NCBI GenBank assembly: GCA_016182875.1
Contig: JACPFQ010000004.1
Coordinates: 183,556 to 247,555, forward strand
DNA: 64,000 nt
Reading direction: 5' to 3'
From: Candidatus Doudnabacteria bacterium
GTDB taxonomy: Bacteria; Patescibacteriota; Doudnabacteria; UBA920; O2-02-FULL-48-8
Positions 4,823 through 64,000 of the stretch are shown here, piece by piece. Every line of letters begins with the position of its first letter. Position 1 is the first letter of the stretch. The notes beneath the pieces were generated by a model. It made no database searches. It saw only the letters and a list, made by a program, of their open reading frames with translations, and was not told the DNA's origin. Position numbers and translations under genes: made by a program.

Positions 4823-6067
4823 ATGCCAAGCAAAATGAATCCATTTAAATCCGCCATGCAGCAGCTGACTGAAGCGGCGGCGGTCATGAAGCTGGATAAG
4901 GAAATCCTATCAGCACTTCGCGAACCAGACCGCACCATAAACGTCAGCCTGCCCGTTCGCATGGATGATGGCCGAATAAAAGTTTTTCAAGGCTACAGAA
5001 TCCAGTACAATGACGCCCGCGGGCCTTATAAAGGCGGAATGCGCTACCATCCGCAGGTAAATATGGATGAAATAAAAGCCTTGGGTTTTTTGCAGACCAT
5101 CAAAAACGCCGTGGTCAATTTGTTTTATGGCGGCGCCAAAGGCGGGATTAGCGTTGACCCCAAAAAATTGTCCAAAGCCGAGCTTGAGCGGCTGTCTCGA
5201 ATGTTCATCCAAAGAATCGCTAAGGACATTGGTCCAGAAACTGACGTTCCGGCCCCGGACGTCAATACCGACTCGGAAATTATGGGCTGGATGGTTGACG
5301 AGTATTCAAAAATCGTGGGTAAATTTACGCCGGCCGCGATAACCGGAAAACCCTTGAGCCTCGGCGGCTCGCAAGGCCGGGAAGAGGCGACTGGCTACGG
5401 CGGCATGGTCGTTTTGAAGCAAATTCTAAAAGAGCAAAAAATCAAAAAGCTGCCGACAGTCGCCGTTCAGGGATTTGGCAATGTTGGCTACTTTTTTGCC
5501 TTATTCGCCCAGTCTTCCAACTTCAAAGTCGTCGCGGTTTCCGACTCGAAGGGCGGAATTTACTCGGCTAAAGGACTGGATGTCAGGAAGGTTCACGAGT
5601 GGAAGAAGCAAATGGGGCAGCTGAAGGGCTACCCGGGAAGCACCACCCTTTCGAACGAGCAGCTGCTTGAGCTGCCGGTTGACGTTTTGGTTCCAGCGGC
5701 CTTGGAAAATCAAATTCACAAAGACAACGCGAAAAAAATTCAGGCCAGGATTATCGTGGAAATGGGCAACGGTCCGGTAACCGCGGAAGCCGACCCGATC
5801 TTGATAAAAAGAAAAATTTTGGTCGTCCCGGACGTTTTGGCCAACTCCGGAGGCGTGGCCACTTCTTATCTTGAATGGTCCCAAAATCGAAGCGGCGTTT
5901 ACTGGTCGGAGCAGGAGGTATTGCAGAAGCTAGAAGCATACATGATTGCCGCAACCCGCAACGTTTTGTCGACTGTTCGCGAATACAAGGTCGCCGATTT
6001 GCGCACTGCGGCCTTTATTTTGGCGCTTAGGCGCATTGCTGATGCAATGCAGGCCAGAGGGCTGTAG
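4823..6067 (+). CDS. gdhA: glutamate dehydrogenase (Glu/Leu/Phe/Val dehydrogenase family)
   Basis: GGxxxGGAKGG-type motifs (FYGGAKGGISVDP), QGFGNVG NAD(P)-binding Rossmann motif. Confidence 0.9.
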   Translation: MPSKMNPFKSAMQQLTEAAAVMKLDKEILSALREPDRTINVSLPVRMDDGRIKVFQGYRIQYNDARGPYKGGMRYHPQVNMDEIKALGFLQTIKNAVVNLFYGGAKGGISVDPKKLSKAELERLSRMFIQRIAKDIGPETDVPAPDVNTDSEIMGWMVDEYSKIVGKFTPAAITGKPLSLGGSQGREEATGYGGMVVLKQILKEQKIKKLPTVAVQGFGNVGYFFALFAQSSNFKVVAVSDSKGGIYSAKGLDVRKVHEWKKQMGQLKGYPGSTTLSNEQLLELPVDVLVPAALENQIHKDNAKKIQARIIVEMGNGPVTAEADPILIKRKILVVPDVLANSGGVATSYLEWSQNRSGVYWSEQEVLQKLEAYMIAATRNVLSTVREYKVADLRTAAFILALRRIADAMQARGL

Positions 6068-15076: not shown

Positions 15077-15163
15077 TGGTGGGCACGGTGGGAGTTGAAC
15101 CCACACGGACGTAAGTCCACACGCTCCTGAAGCGTGCGCGTATGCCAGTTCCGCCACGTGCCC
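15077..15163 (-). tRNA. tRNA-Leu (anticodon CAG), CCA encoded
   Basis: Cloverleaf with long variable arm; anticodon loop TTCAGGA. Confidence 0.85.
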
Positions 15164-15198
15164 TCGTCGCAGTATTTTATCAATTTTACTGCCTTATT

Positions 15199-16971
15199 TC
15201 AACGGGTTTCGATATACCACTTATTGACGTCAGAAAATCTTTCGGAAGGATGAATAATGGTTGTCTGCTCAAAACCTTTGATTTTTTTCGGAAGGTTGTA
15301 GACAAACACCGCGCTGTCCACGAAAACCGCCGGTATCGCGTCGAGAACGATCGTTTGGAACTGCTGATAGTTGGCGGCCCTGACATTGACGTCATTGGTT
15401 TGGCGCGCGGCCAGAAGCAGTTTGTCCACGTCCGCATTGGCAAAGCCGGAAAGATTCAAGCCTGGATCCCTCGCCTGGGAGGAATGCCAGAACGGAAACG
15501 GGTCAGGGTCAGCGCCGGTGTTTTCGGCAAACAGCAGGGCATCGAAATTTCTTGTTCGGATGTAGTTGGTTTGGAGCTCCGCGGCCGAGACAATCACCAG
15601 ATGGACATTGGCGCCCAAAGCCGACCACTGGCTCTGGAGCATCTGCGCCGTTTTCACGTTGAGCACAAAGTCATTCGTGACCAAGTTGAACTCGAACGGC
15701 CGCTTGTTTTTTATGCGGAGGCCGGCGGCCGGGTCCATGACCCACCCTCCTTTATCAAGAATCGCCGCCGCTTCGCTTAAGTTGTTATGCGTTGCTTCTT
15801 TGACCTTCGGGCTGTAGCCGAGGTTGCCTTCCAGTATCGGGCCGTAGGCTTCTTTGGCGTATCCGGAATAGACTTGTTCAATTATGCTCTTGCGGTCTGA
15901 CGCAAGCCAAAGCGCTTGCCGGACAGCCTTATCGGCGAGCACTGGGTTTTTCGGCAAGTTAAAGAATACCGCCTGGTACTGCGGCAGGCCCAATTGATAT
16001 TGGTTATGCTTTTCGGAGTCTTCGAGAAACAGTTTTTTATCAAACGGCAGATATCCAATGCCTTGAATTTCCTTTGATTGGTAAGCGTTAAGCAAGCCGT
16101 CGTAATCCGGATAGAATTTAAATGTTATGCGTTCGATCCACGCCCGGCCGAAATGATAGTTGCCGCTGGCTTTAAAGACTATTGATTTAATCGTGCCGTC
16201 GGCGGTTTTTTTTATCTCGCGCACGCTGAAGGGCCCGGAGCCGACTGCCTTGAGGTTTTGGTCCGCGAGGCGGAAGTTGGTGGGCGGCAAACCCTCCCAA
16301 ATGTGTTTGGGCAGAATCCCTAAAGTAAAGTTGGTGATGAACGAAGCTGAAACTTCTCTGAGAGTGAAAGTTACGGTCAAATCATCGACTTTTTCCGCTT
16401 TCACGCGGCTGAAATTCCCCCGCAAAGGCGATTCATATTCGGAATTTTGGATTGTTTCAATCGTGAAAATTATGTCGTCGGCCAAAAGCGGCTTTTTGTC
16501 CTGCCATTTTAGGTTCGGCTTGAGCTTGATGGTATAAACTTTTTGGTCCGGCGAGACGGTGGGCAGACTTTCTGCCAGGTCAGGAACCAGCTTTAAGTCT
16601 TTATCGAATTTCAGCAGCTGCGCGTAGGCAATCCTGCTCAAATCCGAATCGACGCTGGACGCGGGAGCGAGAATCGGGTTAATAAATCGCGGCTGGCCGA
16701 CGATGCCCTCTACATATTCGCCGCCGTAATCAGGGGCGTTGTCACCTGGGCTATTCATGCTGTCCGATGCGAGAAGCAGCCCGCTGCTTAGCGTCAAGAC
16801 GAGCAAGATGATTATGGCCATCAAATCTCGTTTTTTGAAGGTTTCCAAATATTTTGGCAGGATTCGCGAATTAAATCTCGGCAGAAACCTAAGCCCGCCG
16901 CCCGCCCTGCGCAGAATTGAAAAAAGACCTTGCAGGGTCTTAGGCAGATTTATTTTGAATTTTAAATTCAT
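15199..16971 (-). CDS. ABC transporter substrate-binding protein, family 5 (Opp/Dpp-like)
   Basis: SBP_bac_5-like length and motifs; N-terminal TM/signal (true start may be the internal Met ~16819). Confidence 0.8.
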   Translation of the reverse strand: MNLKFKINLPKTLQGLFSILRRAGGGLRFLPRFNSRILPKYLETFKKRDLMAIIILLVLTLSSGLLLASDSMNSPGDNAPDYGGEYVEGIVGQPRFINPILAPASSVDSDLSRIAYAQLLKFDKDLKLVPDLAESLPTVSPDQKVYTIKLKPNLKWQDKKPLLADDIIFTIETIQNSEYESPLRGNFSRVKAEKVDDLTVTFTLREVSASFITNFTLGILPKHIWEGLPPTNFRLADQNLKAVGSGPFSVREIKKTADGTIKSIVFKASGNYHFGRAWIERITFKFYPDYDGLLNAYQSKEIQGIGYLPFDKKLFLEDSEKHNQYQLGLPQYQAVFFNLPKNPVLADKAVRQALWLASDRKSIIEQVYSGYAKEAYGPILEGNLGYSPKVKEATHNNLSEAAAILDKGGWVMDPAAGLRIKNKRPFEFNLVTNDFVLNVKTAQMLQSQWSALGANVHLVIVSAAELQTNYIRTRNFDALLFAENTGADPDPFPFWHSSQARDPGLNLSGFANADVDKLLLAARQTNDVNVRAANYQQFQTIVLDAIPAVFVDSAVFVYNLPKKIKGFEQTTIIHPSERFSDVNKWYIETR

Positions 16972-56966: not shown

Positions 56967-58043
56967 TTGGCTCATGGTTTTGACGAGATTATTTCTGTTG
57001 AGAATCTGCTCTTGGCTTGGCAAGAGTTTATCCGCGGCAAGAGGAATAAGCCGGATGTCCAACTCTTTGCTCACGCTTTGATTGATAATATTTTACAGCT
57101 TCACAATGATTTAGCCAACAAGACTTATCGGCACGGCGGATATTACCAGTTTAAGATTTCCGATCCCAAGCCGCGGGATATCAGCAAAGCCTCGGTTCGC
57201 GATAGGCTTTTGCATCATGCGATATATCGAATCCTGTATCCATTCTTTGACCGGACATTTATCGCTGATTCTTTTTCCTGCCGGGTTGATAAAGGCACGC
57301 ACAAGGCGGTCAACCGATTGCTGGCAATGTTCAGAAAAGCAAGCAAGAACAATACCCGCACATGCTGGGTTCTCAAATGCGACATCAGGAAGTTCTTTGC
57401 CAGCATAGATCATGATGTTTTGAAAAATATTTTAGCTAGACATGTTCCTGACATAGATATGCTTTGGCTTCTAGGGAATATTATTGATAGCTTTGGGTCA
57501 GATTGCTTCGTCGGCCGCCAGACTAAACCCCGGCCAGAAAACCGGCCTCCTCGCAATGACATTAAATCTGTCTTTGCGAGCGAAGCGAAGCAATCTCATA
57601 ACCAGGGTCTTCCCTTAGGCAACCTAACCTCCCAGCTCTTCGTCAACATATATATGAACGAGTTTGACCAGTTTGTGAAGCATAAACTCAAGGTTAAGCA
57701 TTATATACGCTATGCCGATGATTTTATAATTCTATCTCCAAGCGAAGAGGAACTCACTGCAATACTGTCACGTATTGCAGTACTCCTCAAGCAAGAGCTT
57801 AAACTGCGGCTTCATCCACATAAAGTCACTCTTAAAACCTTTGCTTCAGGCATTGATTTTTTAGGGTGGGTTAATTTTCCCCATCATAGAGTGCTACGCA
57901 CAGCCACGAAAAAACGGATGCTTAAGCGTATCCGTGTAAATTCAACCAATGAAACCTTGCAATCTTATTTAGGACTTTTAAAGCACGGGAATACTTTTCA
58001 AAAAATTTTCGCCAGCCCGCAGCAATGGCCGCGGGGAAGTTGA
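56967..58043 (+). CDS. DGR-type reverse transcriptase
   Basis: RT motifs: KCDIRKFFASIDH (2), GLPLGNLTSQLFVNIYMNEFD (4, DGR-specific LGNLTSQ), YIRYADDFIIL (5, YADD), GIDFLGW (7); TTG start after AGAGG RBS. Confidence 0.85.
   Translation: MAHGFDEIISVENLLLAWQEFIRGKRNKPDVQLFAHALIDNILQLHNDLANKTYRHGGYYQFKISDPKPRDISKASVRDRLLHHAIYRILYPFFDRTFIADSFSCRVDKGTHKAVNRLLAMFRKASKNNTRTCWVLKCDIRKFFASIDHDVLKNILARHVPDIDMLWLLGNIIDSFGSDCFVGRQTKPRPENRPPRNDIKSVFASEAKQSHNQGLPLGNLTSQLFVNIYMNEFDQFVKHKLKVKHYIRYADDFIILSPSEEELTAILSRIAVLLKQELKLRLHPHKVTLKTFASGIDFLGWVNFPHHRVLRTATKKRMLKRIRVNSTNETLQSYLGLLKHGNTFQKIFASPQQWPRGS
57501..57597. repeat. ~97-bp palindromic element (GCGAAGCGAAG family) lying in frame within the RT gene between motifs 3 and 4
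   Basis: gattgcttcgtcggccgcc...ccggcctcctcgcaatgaca...tgtctttgcgagcgaagcgaagcaatctc; encodes ...GSDCFVGRQTKPRPENRPPRNDIKSVFASEAKQSH... Confidence 0.5.
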
Positions 58044-59247
58044 CCGTAAGCTTGAAGGTTGGCGGTTTGGTTCCTGTCTGCTTTAAATTATAGACTTTTG
58101 GCTCCCGTTGGTCGTCCATTTTGCCCGGCGGATGTTCTGAAAGAATATCATCCAAAAATTTATCGAGGCTTTCAACTCCAATTTCACGTGAGGTGCTTTG
58201 GAAGCTTTTGGCAGCCAAATCCAAAATCAGCTCGAGATTGAGTTTGGTCTTGGCCGAAGCAAAGACCACAGGCAAAAACCATGCCTGAGGGAAGTAATCA
58301 GGCAAGATATTTAAAAGTTTGTCCCGCTCGCCCTCCCCCACCAGGTCAATTTTATTGAGAACGATCACAGCAGGCTTGTTGTGTTCGGCAATTTGCTGGG
58401 CCACGACTTGGTCAGCGACCGTAATTTCGCCGGCAGCGTCCAGGACGAACAGCGCGACGTCGGTCTGCGAAAGAACTCGCAGGGACTGGAAGGCGCTGGC
58501 CGTTTCCACGTCCGAGTCCTGCTTCCATTTTTTTTTGATTCCGGCCGTATCGATCAGCGTGAATTTATTTTGCTCATAGTCAAATGGAATGTCCACTGAA
58601 GATCGGGTCGTGCCGGCCTTGTCATGGACCAGCAGGCGCTCCTGTTTGAGCAGGGCGTTGATGAGGGAGGACTTGCCGACGTTGGGTTTTCCGACGAAAG
58701 CAATTTTAATCCGTTCTTCCTCTTCTAACTGGCGCACCGGAAATTTATCATTTAGTATTTTAACTATTTCATCCAATAAGTCGCCGATCCCGGCGCCATT
58801 GATGGAGGAGATTAAAAACGGCTTGTTGAGCCCCAGTTTTAAATATTCAAAAGCCAAGGTTTCGGTTTTGACGTTTCTCGTTTCAATTTTATTTACGGCC
58901 AAGACCACAGGTTTTTTTTGCTGCGAAAGCCTGCCGGCCACGGTAAAGTCTTTACTTCCGGGAGAAGTTCTGCCGTCAACCATAAGCAGAATCAGGTCAG
59001 CTTCTTCTTGAGCGATCTCGGTTTGTTTTTGGACATCCCGCTCCAGATCCGAGCCGGGTCTGGCGACGCCCGCAGTGTCGATAAGATAAAAACTCCGTCC
59101 GCTCCAGGAAGTTAGGCCGAAATGCCGGTCTCGGGTGGTGCCCGCTTCCGGATAGATTAGAGCCTTTCGGACTCCCAGGATTTTATTAAAAAATGTCGAC
59201 TTGCCGACGTTGGGAAGGCCAATTATGGCAACGAGCGGAGTATTCAT
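57922..59247 (-). CDS. der: ribosome-associated GTPase Der/EngA
   Basis: Two tandem GTPase domains (GLPNVGKST, GKPNVGKSS) plus KH-like C-terminus; 3' end overlaps RT 3' end by ~120 bp. Confidence 0.9.
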   Translation of the reverse strand: MNTPLVAIIGLPNVGKSTFFNKILGVRKALIYPEAGTTRDRHFGLTSWSGRSFYLIDTAGVARPGSDLERDVQKQTEIAQEEADLILLMVDGRTSPGSKDFTVAGRLSQQKKPVVLAVNKIETRNVKTETLAFEYLKLGLNKPFLISSINGAGIGDLLDEIVKILNDKFPVRQLEEEERIKIAFVGKPNVGKSSLINALLKQERLLVHDKAGTTRSSVDIPFDYEQNKFTLIDTAGIKKKWKQDSDVETASAFQSLRVLSQTDVALFVLDAAGEITVADQVVAQQIAEHNKPAVIVLNKIDLVGEGERDKLLNILPDYFPQAWFLPVVFASAKTKLNLELILDLAAKSFQSTSREIGVESLDKFLDDILSEHPPGKMDDQREPKVYNLKQTGTKPPTFKLTVNFPAAIAAGWRKFFEKYSRALKVLNKIARFHWLNLHGYA

Positions 59248-60844: not shown

Positions 60845-60921
60845 GGTCACTTAGCTCAGCTGGTTAGAGCGCGTCGTTCACATCGACGAGGCCGCTGGTT
60901 CGAGTCCAGCAGTGACCACCA
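60845..60921 (+). tRNA. tRNA-Val (anticodon CAC), CCA encoded
   Basis: Cloverleaf; anticodon loop TTCACAT; T-arm GGTTCGAGTCC. Confidence 0.9.
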
Positions 60922-61714: not shown

Positions 61715-63043
61715 TTGCGAAGCAAAATTGCACAGGTTCGACCAATTACGACGATGGGACGACCCAAAAAAGCCACACCGATTATTGAAAAAGCTCCGCC
61801 AAAAGTGGCCGGAGCCTTTGATGTATTGCCAGAGCAGCATCTGCCCTATGGCTTCTTTTTTGATAAGCTTAATAATTTGGCCCATACTTTCAGCTATTCA
61901 AAAATTGATACCCCGCTGATTGAAGACGCCCGCCTGTTTCGATTTTGGAAAAGCGCGTATCCCAAAGAAAATTTAATAGAAATCATGAGTGATGACGGCA
62001 AATCTTACCTGGCGGTTAAGCCCAGCAACTTGTTCAGTCTGGCCCGCGTTTACCTCGAGCATCATTATTTTGAAAAAGAACGAACCTGCAAATGGTTTTA
62101 TGCTTCACCCACGGCGCACTTTGGGGCAAACAAAGAGCTGCATCAAATCAACGAATGGGGGTTTCAGATTTTTGGCGAGACCTCAGCGATCGCCGATGTT
62201 CAGTTAATGAACCTGCTGCTGAAATTTTTTTCCGACCTCGGCCTGCCGCAGGTAGGCTTGGAAATCAATAATATCGGCTGCCTGGAATGCCTGCCCCCAT
62301 ATGCCGAAGTTTTGAAGAACTTTTTTAAAGATAAAAAATACGACCTTTGTGAAAATTGTCTTGAGGACTTGGAGCACAACCCGTTAAACATTCTGGCCTG
62401 CGACAACCTCTCCTGCACCACCGCCGCCACCGATGCGCCGGTGCTGGTCGATTATTTGTGCGAGGCCTGCCGCAAGCACTTCATCGGAGTGCTCGAGGGT
62501 CTGGATGAATTAAACATCGGATATAATCTCAATCAAAAGGTAATCGGCAAGCCATGGTCGAGAAGGACTGTATTTGAAATTCGCCACAAAACCCCTGACA
62601 ACCAGGAAATGGTTTTGGGATACGGCGGTCATGCGGACGATTTGATTCAAAGCCTCGGCGGCCCCCAGGTTTCCTCTTTAGGATTCGTTGGCTCACAAGA
62701 GCAGGCAATTTTGGCCCTGGAGCATACCAATAACAAATTCGCCACCAAAAGCAAAGTTGAAGTTTTCCTCGTGCCCTTGGGAGAGCTGGCCGCCAAGAAA
62801 TCTCTCAGATTATTCACGGAACTTTGGAACCATAATATCATCGCCTCCGAATTTATCGGCCCTGGTTCGATTAAAACCCAGCTGCGCCTGGCTGAATCAA
62901 ACAAGGTCAGCATCGCGTTAATCATCGGCCAGAAAGAAGCGCGCGAAGGAACGGTAATTTTGCGCGATGTGCCTTCCGGCATGCAGGAGCTGTTTACGGT
63001 GGAGAGGATCATTGAAGAAGTTAAGAAAAGGCTTGGAAAATAG
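61715..63043 (+). CDS. hisS: histidyl-tRNA synthetase (divergent class II aaRS with anticodon-binding domain)
   Basis: FDVLPEQ (RD.LP.E-like motif), class II core, C-terminal anticodon-binding domain (VFLVPLG...); true start may be Met 61754. Confidence 0.65.
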   Translation: MRSKIAQVRPITTMGRPKKATPIIEKAPPKVAGAFDVLPEQHLPYGFFFDKLNNLAHTFSYSKIDTPLIEDARLFRFWKSAYPKENLIEIMSDDGKSYLAVKPSNLFSLARVYLEHHYFEKERTCKWFYASPTAHFGANKELHQINEWGFQIFGETSAIADVQLMNLLLKFFSDLGLPQVGLEINNIGCLECLPPYAEVLKNFFKDKKYDLCENCLEDLEHNPLNILACDNLSCTTAATDAPVLVDYLCEACRKHFIGVLEGLDELNIGYNLNQKVIGKPWSRRTVFEIRHKTPDNQEMVLGYGGHADDLIQSLGGPQVSSLGFVGSQEQAILALEHTNNKFATKSKVEVFLVPLGELAAKKSLRLFTELWNHNIIASEFIGPGSIKTQLRLAESNKVSIALIIGQKEAREGTVILRDVPSGMQELFTVERIIEEVKKRLGK

Positions 63044-63056
63044 GCACGGAAACCAA

Positions 63057-63084
63057 ACACCCCAACCATGCCGGGGTGTTTTTA
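63057..63084 (+). terminator. rho-independent terminator
   Basis: cacccc-N9-ggggtg + T5. Confidence 0.6.
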
Positions 63085-63161
63085 AAATATTGTCACTTAT
63101 AGTATGTAGATGGATTTCGTTCAAAGATATATCATGTAGTCAATAAGTTACCAGACTTTAT

Positions 63162-63368
63162 ATGACCGACATCAAGAAACAACTAGGTCAGAGAATCAAA
63201 GAGCTCCGCCTGAAAGCACAATATTCTCAAGAAGAACTAGCGGCTAAAGCGGGCTTACACCGCACGTACATGAGCGATATAGAAAGAGGCGAGCGCAATG
63301 TCTCTGTTGAAAATATCGAAAAGATAGCTAAAGCACTGGGTGTTAAGTCTTCGGATTTACTGCCGTAA
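63162..63368 (+). CDS. XRE-family HTH protein, likely R-M controller (C) protein
   Basis: 68 aa HTH_XRE (QEELAAKAGLHRTYMSDIERGERNVS) immediately upstream of a restriction endonuclease gene. Confidence 0.65.
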   Translation: MTDIKKQLGQRIKELRLKAQYSQEELAAKAGLHRTYMSDIERGERNVSVENIEKIAKALGVKSSDLLP

Positions 63369-63375
63369 CAATCGT

Positions 63376-64000
63376 ATGAAAAGATTTGATATAAAAACCG
63401 TTCTTGAAGAAGAGATCAATAAGATTGGCCTCGGCTGGGATATAAAAGGCGTTATTGATTCGCAAAAGCGAATTTACACCATCAATAATGACACCAAACT
63501 TATTTCCAAAGTTTTTGAATTAGTTACTACGCCAATAGTTTTAGACATTGCGGAAAAAAACAAACTTAAGCTTGTCGAATCGGACAGGCAAACAGTGTAT
63601 CCAGATTTTACTTTCATAATGTCGGACAAAACAAAAATTGCATTGGATATTAAAAGCACTTACCGGCGAAATGGTGACAGAGTAGCGGGCTTTACGCTTG
63701 GTTCCTATACGGCATATTTGAGGAATCCGACGAAAAATATAATGTTCCCATACCACGAATACAAGGAACACTGGATTTTAGGGTTTATTTATTCGCGAGC
63801 GGCAAACGTTAAAGCCGACATCGTTCCTATCACAAAATTGGACGATATTGTTCCGGTCATCAAGGACATAGAAATAATCGTACAGCCAAAGTATAAAATC
63901 GCTTCTGAAAGACCTGGAAGCGGCAACACCGCAAACATCGGTTCAATATCGGAAATTAAAAAACTTCAAGAGGGTGAAGGACCGTTTGCGAAATATGGCG
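63376..64000 (+). CDS. EcoRV-family type II restriction endonuclease, 3' end truncated by window edge
   Basis: Strong identity to EcoRV: KRIYTINNDTKLISKVFEL, YPDFTF, KIALDIKSTY (PD...D/ExK), GSGNTANIGSI. Confidence 0.85.
   Translation, partial: MKRFDIKTVLEEEINKIGLGWDIKGVIDSQKRIYTINNDTKLISKVFELVTTPIVLDIAEKNKLKLVESDRQTVYPDFTFIMSDKTKIALDIKSTYRRNGDRVAGFTLGSYTAYLRNPTKNIMFPYHEYKEHWILGFIYSRAANVKADIVPITKLDDIVPVIKDIEIIVQPKYKIASERPGSGNTANIGSISEIKKLQEGEGPFAKYG

Follow-up and report, generated by a model that had tools for sequence, protein, structure and literature searches.

It has long been asked how restriction-modification (R-M) systems spare their own host when methylation falls behind. Self-protection under these circumstances is known to draw on controller (C) proteins, on fusions between methyltransferases and repressors, on antisense RNA and, for type I systems, on proteolytic restriction alleviation. 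In the EcoRV system of plasmid pLG13, a gene for a 99-residue helix-turn-helix (HTH) protein extends into the start of ecoRVR, and the methyltransferase gene is divergent; C.EcoRV is among the C proteins whose binding sites are known from experiments (PMC2632904). In Esp1396I, the controller and endonuclease genes (C/R) are convergent with the methyltransferase gene (M), and C represses M from an operator that lies over its transcription start (PMC3488213). For M.SsoII, M.Ecl18kI and M.EcoRII, autorepression ties expression to the abundance of the methyltransferase (PMC12707154). Here we describe a locus at the right-hand end of a 64,000-nucleotide stretch of DNA (the window, which is the whole stretch analysed). 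The window holds the left two-thirds of a type II R-M cassette in a Candidatus Doudnabacteria (Patescibacteria) genome. The cassette comprises a C gene, an EcoRV-family endonuclease gene (R) and, just past the window end, a methyltransferase gene whose product is predicted to begin with an entire LexA repressor. This architecture suggests a defence system that, when DNA is damaged, alters its own protective methylation.

The part of the cassette that lies past the window was recovered through an exact-sequence look-up of the C protein, which returned five independent assemblies (L001-L005) overlapping the window end. Over shared stretches of up to 3,079 nt, four of these show no mismatch to the window and L004 shows one; a window position equals the L001 position plus 60,921. 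The cassette has three genes. The C gene (63162-63368, plus strand; 68 residues, XRE/HTH_3 fold) is separated by 7 nt from the ATG of R at 63376, and R runs on the same strand through the window end to window-equivalent position 64122 (L001 2455-3201), with 208 of its 248 codons inside the window. C and R are presumably co-transcribed. Convergent with this pair, on the minus strand and outside the window, is the LexA::D12 methyltransferase gene of 569 codons (window-equivalent 64124-65833; L001 3203-4912), hereafter M. Its end lies 1 nt past the R stop codon (L001 3201-3203, window-equivalent 64122-64124). No terminator separates the two stop codons, and the convergent transcripts must therefore enter each other's coding regions; antisense interference between them is possible.

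A preliminary description of the window had given the HTH gene as 63162-63368 and the endonuclease as starting from the ATG at 63376 and leaving the window, and both positions stand. It had also expected the methyltransferase beyond the window end, where the D12-class gene is indeed found, convergent with R on the identical contigs. Neither of the observations that it named as fatal, a downstream region lacking any methyltransferase and a disrupted endonuclease frame, was made: a methyltransferase exists downstream and the endonuclease reads without disruption for 248 residues. In the public records, R is named 'restriction endonuclease' and the 569-residue protein 'transcriptional repressor LexA'.

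Judged by its domain matches, M carries a complete N-terminal LexA, with both the winged-helix DNA-binding domain and the S24 self-cleaving domain, and with the cleavage residues intact. Residues 2-196 score 191.3 bits against the NCBIfam lexA equivalog TIGR00498 (cut-off 110.95), the N-terminus matches both Pfam LexA domains (PF01726 and PF00717), and the family profile matches Thermotoga LexA (5e-48). The A82-G83 cleavage site, the S118 nucleophile and the K156 general base are invariant in 12 of 12 aligned fusions and align with A84, G85, S119 and K156 of E. coli LexA. The fusion is encoded as one open reading frame (ORF) of 569 residues in all five independent contigs, and not as a free-standing LexA of ~200 residues. 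LexA is joined to the methyltransferase by a linker of ~35 residues (about residues 197-230) whose sequence and length vary and which is predicted to be disordered.

The C-terminal part of M is a predicted D12-class (Dam-like) adenine methyltransferase. Residues 236-505 match Pfam MethyltransfD12 (PF02086; 1.8e-18, 67.6 bits, cut-off 22), and residues 225-560 match the PADLOC type II methyltransferase model MTase_II (1.2e-76). Motif I (FGGTG) precedes motif IV (DTPY), and both are invariant in 37 sequences of the M subfamily. The AlphaFold model of the whole fusion was poor, with a predicted local distance difference test score (pLDDT) of 58, and was not used for a fold search. The methyltransferase domain alone, modelled with 37 homologues, reached a pLDDT of 84; its best structural matches were E. 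coli Dam structures, which are weak and distant at template modelling scores of 0.37-0.50. A profile search of PDB sequences gave no match for this domain.

The promoter of M carries a candidate LexA operator. In L001, TTCGAAATTGTTTCGA fills the spacer of the predicted promoter TTGACA-17-TACACT. The corresponding pattern TTC[G/T]A-N6-TTC[G/T]A, whose two halves repeat directly at a spacing of 11 bp, is exact in 12 of 14 fusion promoters and has one mismatch in each of the other two (L089 and L094). It sits between or over the promoter hexamers, including those of distant D12 fusions and of the fusions to N4-cytosine methyltransferases that are described below. The pattern was counted 25 times on both strands of 746 kb of sequence, with 14 of the 25 copies located 26-64 nt before the start codon of a LexA::methyltransferase gene. 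Free-standing lexA genes are classically autoregulated, which predicts that the free lexA genes of the Candidate Phyla Radiation (CPR) carry the same repeat and so offers an independent test. Both of the free CPR lexA genes tested do carry it, as AATCGAAAATAAATCGAAAA in one and CTTTCTATATATTTTCTATAAT in the other, each ending 7 nt before the ATG, and these variants equal those of the fusion promoters L092/L093 and L010/L012/L095. LexA motifs in the form of direct repeats are on record for several phyla, among them Patescibacteria (PMC7739468). Together with the repeat shared by the free CPR lexA genes, this argues that the methyltransferase gene carries the SOS box of its lineage.

Two other operator forms were considered. 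A palindrome in the M promoter, TCGAAA-N3-TTTCGA, was dropped because the more distant fusions show only direct repeats, and the Gram-positive LexA box (CGAAC-N4-GTTCG or GAAC-N4-GTTC) was not found in the window or in L001. An identical operator, TTCTATTTATTTTCTA, is present at one D12 fusion and two N4-cytosine fusions (L012 3942, L095 3975 and L097 3942), which suggests that LexA modules have been swapped, together with their operators, from one class of methyltransferase to another, or else that every one of them follows the SOS box of the host.

An operator in the promoter spacer could equally belong to an ordinary C-controlled EcoRV-like R-M system, in which LexA would serve only as a dimerising autorepressor, as in M.SsoII, M.Ecl18kI and M.EcoRII, with no response to damage. 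Autoregulating fusions of methyltransferase and repressor are well established (PMC12707154), and a variable, predicted disordered linker is also a feature of modular repressor fusions. We nevertheless think this unlikely. In two independent fusion families, whose LexA modules share 49-60% identity, neither the Ala-Gly site nor the Ser/Lys dyad varies, which would be unexpected if cleavage were dispensable, and an operator the same as that of free lexA genes puts M within reach of the host SOS repressor.

The LexA::D12 fusions form about 40 clusters of 566-573 residues with 59-92% identity, mostly from Patescibacteria. Where downstream sequence was available, an EcoRV-family R gene was convergent with the fusion in 11 of 11 loci, and an HTH gene stood upstream of R in 8 of these. 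The nearest unfused relatives of M, of about 355 residues and 58-84% identical, are spread over many bacterial and archaeal phyla. An EcoRV-family ORF adjoins such a relative in 63 of 75 loci; the two usually point the same way, and a C gene is absent from most of these loci. By this linkage, the D12 subfamily of M regularly pairs with EcoRV-type endonucleases, despite its distance from M.EcoRV. A scan of viral contigs found unfused methyltransferase relatives only and no fusions.

The same design recurs with unrelated enzymes. On one 2-Mb contig, an EcoRV-type cassette lies 2.6 kb from a second cassette that consists of a C gene, a BcnI/MvaI-family R gene and a gene for LexA fused to an N6_N4 (N4-cytosine, PF01555) methyltransferase of 621 residues. 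This second fusion family comprises at least 120 clusters (identity 70% or more), mostly from Patescibacteria and annotated as LexA. Three N4-cytosine loci were examined (L006 12291-15077; L095 4001-6787; L097 4001-6210), two of which have the C - R - LexA::M layout with a BcnI/MvaI-family R and a C gene of their own; in L097 the endonuclease is truncated to 115 residues and no HTH gene was recognised. Between two LexA-fusion cassettes there are also remnants of a third C-controlled system (L006 11069-11589, L007 3163-3674), namely a fragment of 71-98 residues of a BsoBI-family endonuclease and an HTH gene with an upstream ATAGTATGTAG C-box.

These loci bear on whether the fusion could be a housekeeping SOS repressor to which a methyltransferase was appended by chance, beside C and R genes that are unrelated to it or decaying. 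The annotation of the fusions by NCBI and JGI as 'transcriptional repressor LexA' agrees with this, as does the use of the same operator as free lexA genes. The LexA modules of the fusions, which are 52-58% identical to free LexA and 49-60% to each other, are also interleaved with free LexA in a neighbour-joining tree, which did not separate a single from a multiple origin of the fusions. Such an accident would have to account, however, for two different fusions 2.6 kb apart on the 2-Mb contig, each with its own C and R, and for the convergent endonuclease of the cognate type that is found in 11 of 11 D12 loci and in the N4-cytosine loci. R is moreover intact with all of its catalytic residues, and the cassettes lie in mobile islands of lower G+C. 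We therefore regard a chance fusion as highly improbable.

R is an intact EcoRV-family PD-(D/E)XK endonuclease. The window fragment alone matches Pfam Endonuc-EcoRV (PF09233) at 7.1e-63 (212.7 bits, cut-off 25) and the sequences of EcoRV crystal structures in the PDB at 1.9e-43. The full-length protein of 248 residues matches PF09233 at 5.8e-73 (245.8 bits, profile positions 8-244 of 244), far beyond chance. The EcoRV catalytic residues E45, D74, D90 and K92 are all present and are invariant across a 65-member family alignment. In EcoRV, the loop G182-S183-G184-N185-T186 and N188 make base contacts, reading GAT/ATC. These residues are identical to those of EcoRV in 62 of 65 members, including this endonuclease, whose loop reads GSGNTAN against GSGNTTN in EcoRV with position 187 as the sole difference. 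It is plausible that R recognises GATATC or a close variant, with GATATC as the best guess.

The C protein is assigned by homology to the PvuII/BclI/AhdI class of controller proteins. It matches Pfam HTH_3 (3.4e-18) and the PADLOC 'Control_protein' model (2.7e-28), and its best solved relatives are C.BclI (2.6e-16), C.AhdI (2.4e-12) and C.Esp1396I (3.3e-9). Its identity to the HTH ORF that precedes ecoRVR on pLG13 is 38% over 56 residues. A generic XRE regulator, an antitoxin or a phage repressor was considered as an alternative and rejected, given the matches specific to C proteins and the conserved C-box described below. No Shine-Dalgarno sequence was found before the C gene. Both protein assignments agree with the preliminary description. 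The EcoRV family is borne out by the Pfam, PDB and PADLOC matches, the invariant catalytic residues and the identical recognition loop, and all four peptide blocks quoted for it occur in the translation of R; a C protein upstream of R is upheld by the homology to solved C proteins, the pLG13-like order of C then R and the conserved C-box.

The strongest C-box match upstream of the C gene is a distal box, CACTTATAGTATGTAGA (63094..63110, plus strand), with its core ACTTATAGT at 63095-63103, the single exact occurrence of this core in the window. The site agrees at 9 of 11 positions with the published C-box consensus GACT(TAT)AGTC (PMC3488213), and the TCACTT within the box matches a binding block of C.BclI (PMC2094064). 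The block [C/T/A]ACTTATAGT[A/C]TGTAG is invariant in four orthologous loci whose flanks have diverged. Across the 746 kb, all 9 occurrences of ATAGT[AC]TGTAG are upstream of C genes, while ACT[TC]ATAGT has 14 matches (13 without the window copy of the L001 site), 8 of them in promoters. Each of four related loci has exactly one C-box 59-67 nt before the C start and one 26-46 nt before the M start; more distant C genes carry CTAACTATAGTATGTAGA. The C-box of the M promoter overlaps the predicted -10 element (TACACT) and the transcription start. We propose that C binds the distal box with high affinity, as an activating, OL-like operator.

A possible weak -35 element, TGTAGA (63105-63110, plus strand), lies inside the distal C-box region, and a candidate -10 element, TATATC (63128..63133, plus strand), placed by alignment with orthologues that have TATAGT or TATACT, follows 17 nt after it. 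A consensus sigma-70 scan upstream of C found no strong promoter, which fits the weak, activator-dependent promoters of C operons (PMC2632904). Overlapping the putative -10 is the palindrome GATATATC at 63126-63133, which reads as an EcoRV site lengthened by TA at its centre. This palindrome is kept in orthologues as CATATATC, GGTATAGT or AATATACT, so it is probably a promoter element and not a recognition site.

Between the putative -10 and the C start lies a proximal block, ATGTAGTCAATAAGTTAC (63134..63151, plus strand), which is nearly invariant in the four orthologues; shortly before the C start codon, the form ATGTAG[T/C]CAATAAGTTAC is conserved. Of the C-box, the block has no more than one half, in inverted form, as ATAAGT (ACTTAT reverse-complemented). 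Together with the distal box it makes up an inverted repeat whose arms, at 63083-63100 and 63143-63160, are 78% complementary. Plausibly, the proximal block is a low-affinity repressing site, an untranslated leader, or both. The preliminary description had placed its possible C-box-like half-sites in this region (~63133-63160). The GTAGTC (63136-63141) and AGACT (63153-63157) that it pointed to are present in the ortholog-conserved block, and a C-box does lie upstream of C, but the block holds only half a C-box and the strongest match, at 63094-63110, is ~40 nt further upstream.

The explanation that we favour, and consider likely, is a C/R/LexA::M cassette under the control of C-boxes and a LexA box, in which damage relieves the repression of M and the recognition site is probably GATATC-like. 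The C/R promoter would be weak, and C would bind ACTTATAGT(A/C)TGTAG near its -35 and activate it, so that the endonuclease would be delayed; the proximal degenerate box would limit C/R expression at high levels of C. At the M promoter, accumulating C would turn M down through the C-box over the -10 and transcription start, in an Esp1396I-like manner. The LexA box between the -35 and -10 of the same promoter would allow the fusion protein, and probably host LexA too, to repress M. On DNA damage, activated RecA would trigger self-cleavage at Ala82-Gly83, detaching the DNA-binding domain, and the de-repressed M would restore protective methylation. One way in which such damage would arise is cutting by R at host sites that lack methylation. 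Self-restriction induces SOS (PMC3874152; PMC12707154), so a feedback from damage to methylation would counter self-restriction.

Several observations weigh against this explanation. All of its regulatory steps (binding, cleavage and methylation) are read from sequence, and neither a RecA gene nor a free LexA gene was found within the 64-kb window. Some of the promoters in which the operator pattern was counted had already served to derive it, several of these promoters are related by descent, and shuffle tests of the repeat in single promoters are individually weak for several loci (P = 0.07-0.75); the case for the LexA box is built on the half-site and the period that the promoters share, and on the test with free lexA genes. 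For the C/R operator, the distal and proximal C sites are ~30-50 bp apart, unlike the canonical contiguous 35-bp OL+OR operator, and the distal C-box is 58 nt from the C ATG against the usual 17-18 nt. The fusion loci L090, L091 and L012 have no recognisable C gene, so that C is not obligatory for the fusion design. Motif IV of M is DTPY and not the canonical DPPY, and M is only 24% identical to M.EcoRV (E = 0.002). As to the recognition site, the minor-groove Q-loop of R is unlike that of EcoRV (Q68R, N70T, H71V), so its specificity could differ. The avoidance of GATATC that the preliminary description expected is absent from the 64-kb window, which has 12 sites against 10.3 expected from shuffling or 15.0 from a Markov estimate; with no signal in these counts, avoidance was set aside as a specificity test that is uninformative either way.

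A cyclic-oligonucleotide-based antiphage signalling system (CBASS) operon stands divergent from the LexA::methyltransferase gene in two loci (L001 4993-7229, window-equivalent 65914-68150; L089 3421-4910). It encodes a 169-residue effector with one transmembrane segment, a SMODS/CD-NTase cyclase and an E2-like protein. The operon and the methyltransferase gene share an 80-bp control region with a LexA box and a C-box. A promoter predicted on the plus strand, TTGACT-17-TACTAT, would place a transcription start at the LexA box, so that both DNA damage and C may take part in regulating CBASS.

Since CBASS acts by abortive infection, a defence island that holds it beside the cassette and serine recombinases could also suit the reverse outcome, in which damage destroys protection. 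The S24-methyltransferase fragment would be degraded, methylation would lapse and the endonuclease would kill the cell that is damaged or infected, as in abortive infection or addiction. E. coli LexA fragments are degraded by ClpXP and Lon, and the 'antitoxin' of an R-M system would here be linked to a damage-triggered protease switch. Cleavage would, however, also de-repress the M promoter, so that net methyltransferase could rise; DNA already methylated stays protected until replication, and the sequence carries no sign of an unstable C-terminal fragment. We consider this outcome improbable and retain the reading in which damage raises methylation.

The left border of the R-M cassette is marked by an intrinsic-terminator-like hairpin with the arms AAACACCCC and GGGGTGTTT followed by a T run (63055..63085, hairpin 63055-63081, plus strand). 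Its arms form a 9-nt perfect inverted repeat around a 9-nt loop. The hairpin ends the histidyl-tRNA synthetase (HisRS)-like gene (61715-63043, plus strand, stop at 63043) directly left of the cassette. The G+C content falls from ~0.48-0.52 before the hairpin to ~0.39 from the hairpin onward. In related loci, cassettes adjoin large serine recombinases or the ends of tRNA genes (L089 8086-9657; L094 8011-9513; L095 7322-8824; L006 about 15090-15200; L091 about 4950-5100). These neighbours, together with the G+C drop at ~63000, point to mobile defence islands.

Elsewhere in the window, the HisRS-like protein itself has a weak tRNA-synt_His match (2e-11) and several CxxC pairs in an insert, and is named by NCBI 'ATP phosphoribosyltransferase regulatory subunit' (HisZ). 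A tRNA gene (60845-60918, plus strand; Rfam RF00005, 69 bits) lies between LytR-family and signal peptidase genes. A reverse-transcriptase ORF of 358 residues (56967-58043, plus strand; Pfam RVT_1, 8e-25) overlaps with its 3' end the 3' end of the der/engA GTPase gene on the opposite strand (57922-59247).

More broadly, we put forward tentatively, and with slightly less than even confidence, that LexA::methyltransferase fusions are an undescribed and widespread class of R-M regulation in Patescibacteria, with M wired into the SOS circuit. If so, M would carry the host LexA box, repress itself and be freed by RecA-triggered self-cleavage, and chromosome breaks from self-restriction would feed back to raise methylation. 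A methyltransferase fused to a self-cleaving SOS repressor would be a direct feedback from damage to methylation, and the same damage signal could co-regulate CBASS through the shared 80-bp region at the two loci that have it. There is also a consequence for annotation, as at least 160 protein clusters labelled 'transcriptional repressor LexA' by several public sources are R-M methyltransferases by this analysis, and such mislabelled fusions matter for SOS-regulon reconstructions in the CPR. The chief value of the C-R pair of the window is that it may supply a new isoschizomer for GATATC from a lineage that has not been cultured.

The fusion of LexA to a methyltransferase appears to be undescribed. 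Literature searches found no paper describing it, though an earlier mention is still possible, and LexA is not mentioned anywhere in a 2025 review of R-M biology. The C-R pair, in turn, belongs to a well-studied kind, that of EcoRV-family enzymes and an Esp1396I-like circuit. Like the EcoRV system of pLG13, this one has an R of the same family (39% identity over the full length, with the catalytic residues conserved and the GSGNT-N loop identical), a small HTH regulator gene immediately upstream of R in the same orientation, and an M that is a D12-class adenine enzyme. The two differ in that M is divergent from C-R on pLG13 and convergent here, and in that the present M, at 24% identity, falls into another D12 subfamily and bears the LexA fusion. 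Their C proteins differ in class as well: the one in this cassette belongs with PvuII/BclI/AhdI and has a box of the GACT-N3-AGTC type, while C.EcoRV belongs to a palindromic motif class of its own (PMC2632904).

With Esp1396I, the cassette shares C-R genes convergent with M, a GACT(TAT)AGTC-type box at both the C/R and the M promoter, and an M-promoter C site that overlaps the transcription start (PMC3488213). The endonuclease and methyltransferase families of the two systems are unrelated, the M of Esp1396I has no regulator fusion, and the C/R operator of the present cassette departs from the contiguous 35-bp OL+OR arrangement. As in M.SsoII, M.Ecl18kI and M.EcoRII, whose N-terminal domains repress their own promoters (PMC12707154), a DNA-binding domain precedes the methyltransferase. 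Those proteins, however, are C5-cytosine enzymes that carry a short HTH and have neither a protease domain nor a C protein, whereas here a whole LexA with an intact self-cleavage apparatus is found together with a separate C protein. Finally, the N-terminal part of M resembles free LexA (TIGR00498) in the full length of both domains, the conserved cleavage site and dyad, and an operator at its own promoter that is identical to that of free CPR lexA; unlike free LexA, it is joined to a DNA methyltransferase of 340 residues and encoded in a mobile R-M cassette.

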